In this document: positions 991-1,179 of the stretch, in pieces
How the letters are laid out: each line of letters begins with the position of its first letter
How positions within the stretch are numbered: position 1 is the stretch's first letter
Virus record (IMG/VR): IMGVR_UViG_648276647_000010
Coordinates: 1 to 6,943 of that record
Reading direction: 5' to 3' (one strand)
Length of the DNA stretch: 6,943 nucleotides
Source: a virus
Taxonomy: Duplodnaviria; Heunggongvirae; Uroviricota; Caudoviricetes
Program-made: the position numbers and the translations under genes
The notes under the pieces: generated by a model
What the model saw: only the letters and a program-made list of their open reading frames with translations
Database searches by the model: none
Told to the model about the DNA's origin: nothing

Positions 991-1179
991 ATGAAATCAA
1001 TTCGCTGTAAAAACTGCAACAAACTGTTATTTAAGGCGGATTCCTTTGATCACATTGAAATCAGGTGTCCGCGTTGTAAACGTCACATCATAATGCTGAA
1101 TGCCTGCGAGCATCCCACGGAGAAACATTGTGGGAAAAGAGAAGAAATCACGCATTCTGACGAAACCGTGCGTTATTGA
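991..1179 (+). CDS. com: Com, zinc-finger translational activator of mom
   Basis: 62-aa [37 protein letters not shown]... with Cys6/Cys9/Cys26/Cys29 forming the CxxC...CxxC zinc site described for Mu Com. Strong Shine-Dalgarno upstream, and the 3' end overlaps the mom start region as in Mu. Confidence 0.9.
1113..1135 (+). promoter_or_regulatory. mom translation-initiation stem-loop (Com-regulated); sequesters the Shine-Dalgarno and GUG start
   Basis: Perfect 6-bp inverted repeat tcccac (1113-1118) / guggga (1130-1135) around an 11-nt loop ggagaaacauu. The loop contains GGAG (1119-1122) and the stem contains GUG 1130-1132, in frame with the mom ORF. This matches the known mechanism in which Com binds just 5' of a hairpin to unmask mom initiation. 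Confidence 0.55.

Follow-up and report, generated by a model that had tools for sequence, protein, structure and literature searches.

A probable two-hairpin translational operator at the com-mom overlap of a Mu-like prophage in Escherichia coli

Phage Mu com-mom control and the setting of the prophage

The closest described counterpart of the locus examined here is the com-mom operon of phage Mu, for which a control model was worked out by Wulczyn and Kahmann (1991) and Hattman et al. (1991) and reviewed by Hattman (1999), all cited in PMC6483171. According to this source, the translation inhibition structure (TIS) of mom has the GUG initiation codon within its stem, and the binding of Com makes this structure less stable and leaves the start signals exposed, with the hairpin of the Com site adjoining the TIS and the Com target partly overlaying it. 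The same paper gives the native 19-mer Com target as GAAUGCCUGCGAGCAUCCC and the region overlapping the TIS as GAAUGCCUGCGAGCAUCCCACGGAG (matching positions 1098-1122 of our sequence), describes the Com motif 5'-CC(N)2-3GAG-3' together with its C-G closing pair, and gives GUG as the mom start in a literature statement. Binding data for Com exist with Mu RNA that is identical to that of our locus (PMC6483171), and in that paper's own work with truncated Com, melting of the TIS was not observed. In the curated Mu record AF083977, com is annotated as a "translational activator", and the mom coding sequence (CDS), for a Mom of 231 aa, starts at the equivalent of our position 1130, with its ribosome-binding site (RBS) at the equivalent of 1119-1122.

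The window, by which we mean the whole 6,943-nt stretch of DNA that was analysed, is identified from its sequence as the right end, with gin, com, and mom, of a Mu-like prophage next to opgB in the E. coli chromosome, because of its identity with Mu and D108, its Pfam and PHROG calls, and its flanking E. coli genes. The genes and the promoter region of the prophage part are as follows.

315-908, + strand: serine invertase open reading frame (ORF), from the ORF list
916-982, + strand: predicted Pmom late promoter region, corresponding to 917-983 of the AF083977 locus
991-1179, + strand: com, a 62-aa ORF, from the ORF list
1100-1846, + strand: mom ORF as called, 248 aa, overlapping com
1976-2317, + strand: 113-aa ORF, from the ORF list

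In fact, positions 300-1815 share 98.4% identity with phage Mu, and positions 300-1846 about 97% with D108 and related Mu-like phages. By Pfam and PHROGs, the three phage proteins are a Gin-type resolvase, Com, and Mom. Here, Com matches PF10122 (Zn_ribbon_Com, E 2.4e-9) and PHROG 13819 ('gpCom control of modification', E 3e-45), whereas Mom matches PF25680 (E 2.5e-75) as an adenine-modifying GNAT-like enzyme and is near-identical to the 'Methylcarbamoylase mom' chain of PDB 8bv8 (E 4e-158). A CCCC zinc-ribbon gene is thus found directly upstream of mom, which it overlaps by 50 nt when mom is read from 1130. The NCBI annotation pipeline (PGAP) names Com a 'DNA-binding transcriptional regulator', though the evidence favours an RNA-binding translational activator. 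Moreover, positions 900-990 show no difference from Mu and, by alignment and by the AF083977 annotation, contain a C-dependent late promoter that is predicted from sequence. Three GATC (Dam) sites (882-885, 900-903, and 913-916), the same as in Mu, lie upstream of or at the edge of Pmom, and their position matches that of the Dam/OxyR-controlled region of Mu mentioned in PMC3378877. On the - strand, E. coli chromosomal genes follow, of which opgB is the first (RefSeq annotation).

Past mom (1847-2546), the element is unlike Mu. The C-terminus of Mom itself leaves Mu after about position 1815 and takes a D108-type ending (1815-1846). The 113-aa ORF has neither a Pfam nor a PHROG match, and its N-terminus resembles a signal peptide. 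The Mu attR sequence is absent from the right end of the element, where an 18-nt direct repeat, TATCTTGAAT(G/A)(T/A)TTTT.., instead occurs three times (at 2460, 2495, and 2517), just ahead of the opgB junction at about 2543. Further - strand genes past opgB are ones that we take to be yjjA, dnaC, and dnaT. In E. coli 2014C-3075, the segment of mom plus the ORF occurs at another chromosomal site, near ddpX, with 94.9% identity. Given this second chromosomal site and the non-Mu right end, the element is probably a transposable phage that has Mu-like gin-com-mom genes and other end sequences.

The two hairpins and the start of mom

We regard it as very probable, on the strength of the nucleotide sequence and its comparison with Mu, that positions 1098-1135 constitute a two-hairpin translational operator of the Mu-type com-mom operon, at which Com would unmask GUG 1130. 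Its elements are these.

1098-1116, + strand: putative Com target RNA, equal to the native 19-mer of the binding studies
1100-1113, + strand: putative Com-binding hairpin, with arms AUGC (1100-1103) and GCAU (1110-1113) and loop CUGCGA (1104-1109)
1113-1135, + strand: TIS, with a Watson-Crick stem (1113-1118/1130-1135) plus the G·U pairs 1119/1129 and 1120/1128
1119-1122, + strand: Shine-Dalgarno (SD) sequence GGAG of mom, 7 nt ahead of GUG 1130, annotated as the RBS in AF083977
1130-1846, + strand: mom CDS as read from GUG, 238 aa here and 231 aa in Mu

All of the sequence-level defining features of the Mu com-mom operator are present. Between positions 900 and 1200, the window differs from Mu at two sites (1077 and 1144), and none of the differences from Mu or D108 falls within 1093-1135.

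An earlier, sequence-only reading of this DNA had proposed a perfect 6-bp stem in the 3' part of com, with GUG 1130 in the stem and GGAG in the loop. The stem is borne out by the letters themselves, TCCCAC (1113-1118) and GTGGGA (1130-1135) being perfect reverse complements. As proposed, GUG 1130-1132 is located in the 3' arm, and the entire hairpin lies within com (991-1179). Between the 6-bp arms, the loop (1119-1129) reads GGAGAAACATT, but the placing of GGAG there holds only in part. Because G1119·U1129 and G1120·U1128 extend the helix, the first half of the SD (1119-1120) is in the stem, and the rest shares the loop with the spacer. RNAfold of 1108-1140 accordingly gives an 8-bp stem (1113-1120/1128-1135) at -9.5 kcal/mol, an energy not near zero, compared with -3.8 ± 1.8 kcal/mol for dinucleotide shuffles of the same segment (z = -3.14; 1 of 200 as stable). 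The RBS and the GUG start annotated in AF083977 coincide with 1119-1122 and 1130, and we identify the hairpin at 1113-1135, by its sequence, as the published TIS of mom. As another candidate function, a transcription terminator was rejected, as the stem is followed by AAAAGAG with no U-run.

Stem length alone says little here. On the + strand of the window, perfect 6-bp stems with loops of 4-15 nt number 21, against 19.5 ± 5.1 after shuffling, and when 66 nt are folded the hairpin is again predicted, though with a whole-segment z of only -0.74. Both figures would suit an account in which the stem has arisen by chance, or as a by-product of the overlapping frames, and has no regulatory role; moreover, as the segment codes for both Com and Mom, constraint on the proteins could account for its conservation. 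Since 6-bp stems occur at chance frequency, the significance of the hairpin comes from its position, its conservation, and published experiments. As to position, 1113-1135 is the sole stem of the 21 that combines an SD-like tetramer with a start codon in the 3' arm. As to conservation, the stem is invariant in the Mu clade, except for a single C-to-U substitution at 1118, which still allows a G·U pair, and the loop varies among relatives both in sequence and in length (11-17 nt). An RNAalifold alignment of the Mu clade recovers both hairpins and contains no compensatory changes in the TIS stem, because this stem hardly varies there. As to experiments, the literature deals with an identical Mu sequence.

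The second, upstream hairpin (1100-1113), the actual site of Com binding in Mu and the predicted one here, was missing from the sequence-only reading. It, too, falls in the 3' part of com. Its CCUGCGAG conforms to the Com motif as CC(N)3GAG and has the C-G closing pair. A covariance model built from relatives has its sole match in the window at 1095-1116 (22.5 bits, E 0.0017; the next scores 10.7 bits), though the window sequence is itself among the 33 rows on which the model was trained. Two AUGC copies contend for the one GCAU, and the ViennaRNA minimum free energy (MFE) structure of the 66-nt context prefers a pairing of 1093-1097 (AUGCU) with 1109-1113 (AGCAU) to the published Com hairpin. 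This upstream pairing was rejected as a probable artefact of prediction, since close variants do not conserve its 5' arm, while 1100-1103/1110-1113 covaries.

Where mom starts is annotated in two ways. Naive ORF calling, the D108 GenBank record (GQ357916), and PGAP (NZ_CP027447) all begin mom at ATG 1100. Were this AUG the true start of a 248-aa Mom, or an additional one, the hairpin would lie within the CDS and could at most modulate elongation. There is indeed no interruption of the mom frame from 1100 onwards, and AUG initiates more strongly than GUG. Moreover, a 2026 structural paper in Nat Commun (PMC13219725) numbers from the AUG and calls the resulting 241-aa form 'full-length', and its Y28, W48, and S124 fit that form only. 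However, no SD is found within 18 nt upstream of ATG 1100. The 5' arm of the Com hairpin begins with AUG 1100-1102, so Com would cover the very codon that it was to activate. In addition, this codon varies as bases in a stem would, being GTG in six close viral variants and GGG, AGG, ACG, or GCG in distant relatives. Most of the non-Mu variants lack the TGA of 1097-1099, so the "longest ORF" start shifts among them, whereas GGAG-N7-GUG stays fixed.

In two relatives, an upstream stop closes the frame between the AUG equivalent and the GUG. The stop-to-stop frame of Scandinavium (L047) begins only 12 nt ahead of the GUG equivalent, which is the sole start candidate, and that of Apirhabdus (L062) begins 3 nt ahead, leaving as candidates only the GUG and an adjacent UUG. 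Here, therefore, the GUG equivalent (or the UUG of L062) is the only possible start. In an alignment of 24 Mom sequences, many called N-termini, such as MGKQKKSR, MGKENKSR, and MAQKLSR, line up with that of the GUG form, and the 10-residue extension of the AUG form recurs in one close relative only. The extension is also dispensable, since the GUG form, called 'delta10', is active and is the form that was crystallized (PMC13219725); in fact, the first residue of the PDB 8bv8 chain is the one encoded at 1130. Furthermore, the mass reported for recombinant Mom without Met (27,050 Da; PMC7261163) fits the 27,041.7 Da that we calculate for the GUG form minus Met. With GUG given both by AF083977 and in the literature, initiation at AUG 1100 appears highly unlikely.

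Taken from a secondary literature statement, a curated record, and comparative data, the evidence thus favours GUG 1130 as the start of mom, as the sequence-only reading had proposed, and what follows from it is a valid point of annotation. Mom in this prophage would be 238 aa long rather than 248, ten residues fewer than in the ORF list. The correction also concerns the D108 record and the NCBI pipeline, as well as the 2026 paper, in which the probable native Mom is still labelled "delta10".

Com-mom junctions in related loci

To place the operator among its relatives, we made a search with Mom that returned 848 homologues, 24 of which were aligned and used to seed a scan of one genome per species. 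This gave 80 mom loci, comprising 54 with a Com-like ORF just upstream, 2 with a truncated or interrupted com, and 24 without com. In these loci, a hairpin of the form NNGC-C(N2-4)GA-GCNN recurs 3-41 nt (mostly 12-24 nt) upstream of a start in the mom frame that has an SD before it. Such a Com-type hairpin is present in 48 of the 56 com-bearing loci and in none of the 24 com-less ones (Fisher p about 6e-14, with kinship ignored). Its density is 7.38 per kb in the junctions compared with 0.112 per kb elsewhere (66-fold), and matches of the covariance model within the loci fall almost only just upstream of mom and on the coding strand. As for its range, the com-linked hairpin extends from Enterobacterales to Desulfovibrionales, Rhodospirillales, and Pseudomonas.

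The arms of the hairpin vary together (AUGC/GCAU, GGGC/GCCC, AGGC/GCCU, ACGC/GCGU, and GCGC/GCGC), with the two outer pairs being of the types AU/GU/GC/CG/UA and CG/UA/GC/AU across 33 relatives. For these 33 distinct examples with a 6-nt loop, the covariation score was 0.651 against 0.171 in shuffled rows (0 of 500 as high) and was lost when the partners were slid, though the rows had been chosen by a regular expression that demands pairing, which makes the "100% paired" count among them circular. Because of this selection, an anchor-only test (GCC-N2-3-GAGC) was run as well, and here both outer pairs were found in 42 of 50 distinct sequences, compared with 12.9 ± 2.8 when the partners were re-dealt.

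Masking of the RBS was tested on 44 distinct com-mom junctions from diverse Proteobacteria, with accessibility statistics used because the TIS stems of distant relatives cannot be aligned. The median MFE z-score of these junctions was -2.81. For the RBS (-14 to +3), the mean unpaired probability was 0.38 in the native junctions and 0.46 after shuffling of the 5' part, the native value being the lower in 40 of the 44. With the Com hairpin forced, it rose to 0.52, and with the 6 nt 3' of that hairpin also blocked, to 0.63. In every one of the 44 junctions, the SD or the start codon was more than 50% paired, and in 23 of them both were. In these models, masking of the RBS is therefore kept as structure and not as sequence.

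The relatives bear directly on the chance or by-product account. GAGCATCCCACGGAG and ATTGTGGGAAAAGAGAA are invariant where the flanking com codons differ heavily, and this despite a poorly conserved C-terminal tail of Com. An overlap of 6-88 nt between com and mom is found in most relatives, but five (L088, L094, L103, L108, and L110) have the end of com about 60 nt ahead of the mom start and the hairpins in the non-coding spacer, where coding constraint cannot account for them. When taken together with the masking of SD or start by unrelated sequences in all 44 junctions, the covarying outer pairs of the Com hairpin, and the lack of the motif from com-less mom loci, these observations make a stem without regulatory role extremely improbable.

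In 21 of the 44 junctions, the RBS is predicted to pair with the nucleotides of the Com site themselves, as for example in L076 (CCAAGAGCGUC with GACGCUCUUGG) and L085 (GCGCCUUCC with GGAGGGCGC), so that the two folds would be mutually exclusive. According to these predictions, Com would capture one of two exclusive folds in about half of the junctions, acting on a two-state switch, whereas Mu uses an adjacent stem. Moreover, in about 16 loci (L064, L075, L077, L078, L084, L087, L088, L089, L094, L102, L103, L106, L108, L110, L114, and L119) the proximal Com-type hairpin has another of its kind upstream, at a start-to-start distance of 21-25 nt, which is exactly 22 nt in 12 of the 16. Since 22 nt is not a multiple of three, the tandem hairpins are no repeat within the Com peptide, and the arrangement suggests the binding of two Com molecules. 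Only one Com-type hairpin is present in the window and in Mu.

Two further observations concern com itself. In a Pseudodesulfovibrio metagenome-assembled genome (L082, about 170-330), the com homologue has an in-frame stop in its zinc ribbon (..ELDI*CPRC..), which could reflect a pseudogene, a sequencing error, or recoding; the Com-type hairpin upstream of mom still scores 26.6 bits there. The 24 loci that have neither a detectable com nor a Com-type hairpin (L049, L052, L053, L057-L061, L070, L098, L105, L109, L111-L113, L115-L118, and L122-L126) include Yersinia, Serratia, and Sphingomonas, and mom must be under some other control in all such loci.

An Rfam 15 scan of positions 900-1300 (E up to 10) returned only chance-level hits to ES056 and ZFAT-AS1_2 and no operator family, and in open-access text we found no published account of this comparative picture. 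Tentatively, and with rather less than even confidence, we raise the idea that the Mu operator is a derived version of a wider, uncatalogued RNA element without an Rfam family, characterised by the com-linked hairpin, an exclusive switch in about half of the cases, and tandem sites.

Predicted unmasking by Com and its comparison with known systems

Mom is toxic if produced early. In the free mRNA, the TIS would pair GUG and the first half of GGAG with CCCAC(GG), and ribosomes would be blocked from initiating mom for as long as it stays closed. Com, made from the same late transcript, would then occupy the 5' hairpin (1100-1113, with its CC-N3-GAG motif) along with the bases just 3' of it, and by taking the CCCAC strand from the TIS would expose GGAG-N7-GUG, after which Mom would be translated from GUG 1130 (238 aa here). 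We infer these events for the prophage from Mu by sequence identity, and the exact way in which Com melts the stem is likewise a presumed one.

Accessibility modelling of the window is consistent with this scheme. In the free RNA, the RBS (-14 to +3) has an unpaired probability of 0.41, which forcing of the Com hairpin leaves at 0.41; with a further block on the 6 nt that lie 3' of this hairpin, it becomes 0.96. From this pattern, which agrees with the published overlay of target and TIS, the inhibitory strand of the Mu clade is, in the model, the CCCAC directly 3' of the Com hairpin. Com-dependent unmasking of the RBS and translation of mom in this prophage are thus predictions that the accessibility model and the Mu literature support.

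Alternatively, the TIS might be opened mainly by ribosomes translating com, as in translational coupling, with the Com protein as an accessory. The com ORF does pass through the whole TIS, continuing to 1179, and its ribosomes must unwind the structure; the overlap of com and mom in most relatives fits with this as well. In the five loci where the hairpin and the masked RBS lie in an untranslated spacer past the com stop, however, coupling cannot act, as the whole architecture sits downstream of that stop. A covarying Com-site hairpin would also be needless under pure coupling, and according to the literature (PMC6483171, PMC3378877), mom translation requires Com, an activator that binds RNA. 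We therefore consider coupling very unlikely as the main mechanism, though some contribution from it in Mu is possible. Unmasking by the Com protein is the preferred reading, and it would make the operator a classic safeguard, in which a toxic DNA-modifying enzyme is delayed until late in the lytic cycle.

The hairpin of the sequence-only reading is not new, since this switch has been understood in phage Mu for decades. The finding is supported as correct, and it is a rediscovery of the Mu TIS. What the comparison contributes is independent support for a 35-year-old model, in the form of covariation, the strict link with com, and RBS masking in every relative examined. What remains novel is how widely the module of Com hairpin and masked RBS occurs, that it has two architectures, and that in about 16 distant loci the hairpins stand in tandem at about 22 nt, and these comparative data could seed an RNA family that is missing from Rfam.

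Among more distant systems, hairpins that sequester an RBS are familiar, as in the rpoS mRNA, which is opened by the small RNA DsrA. The com-mom operator is like this type in keeping SD and start in a stem until a trans-acting factor removes the inhibitory strand. It is unlike it in that the factor is a zinc-ribbon protein from the same transcript and not a small RNA or metabolite; moreover, the Mu factor attaches next to the inhibitory stem and not to an anti-SD strand alone. A resemblance to HIV Tat-TAR has been noted by Hattman and in PMC6483171. In both systems, expression is activated when a small protein recognises a short hairpin whose hexaloop is of the CC...GAG type and closed by C-G. 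However, Tat and Com are evolutionarily unrelated, and the step affected is transcription elongation for Tat but translation initiation, through the unmasking of an RBS, for Com, so the likeness is a functional analogy only.

Closest of all are the Mu-like phages themselves. Phages D108 and SfMu have the same operator sequence, and the 3' end of mom in the window is closest to that of D108, whose ATG start for mom is a difference of annotation in the same sequence. With phage Mu, the prophage shares the gene order (gin, Pmom, com, and overlapping mom), the GGAG-N7-GUG, the 19-mer, the TIS stem, and an operator (1093-1135) that is identical throughout. Only further downstream does it part from Mu, in its D108-like Mom C-terminus, its 113-aa ORF, and its TATCTTGAAT-type repeats in place of the Mu attR.
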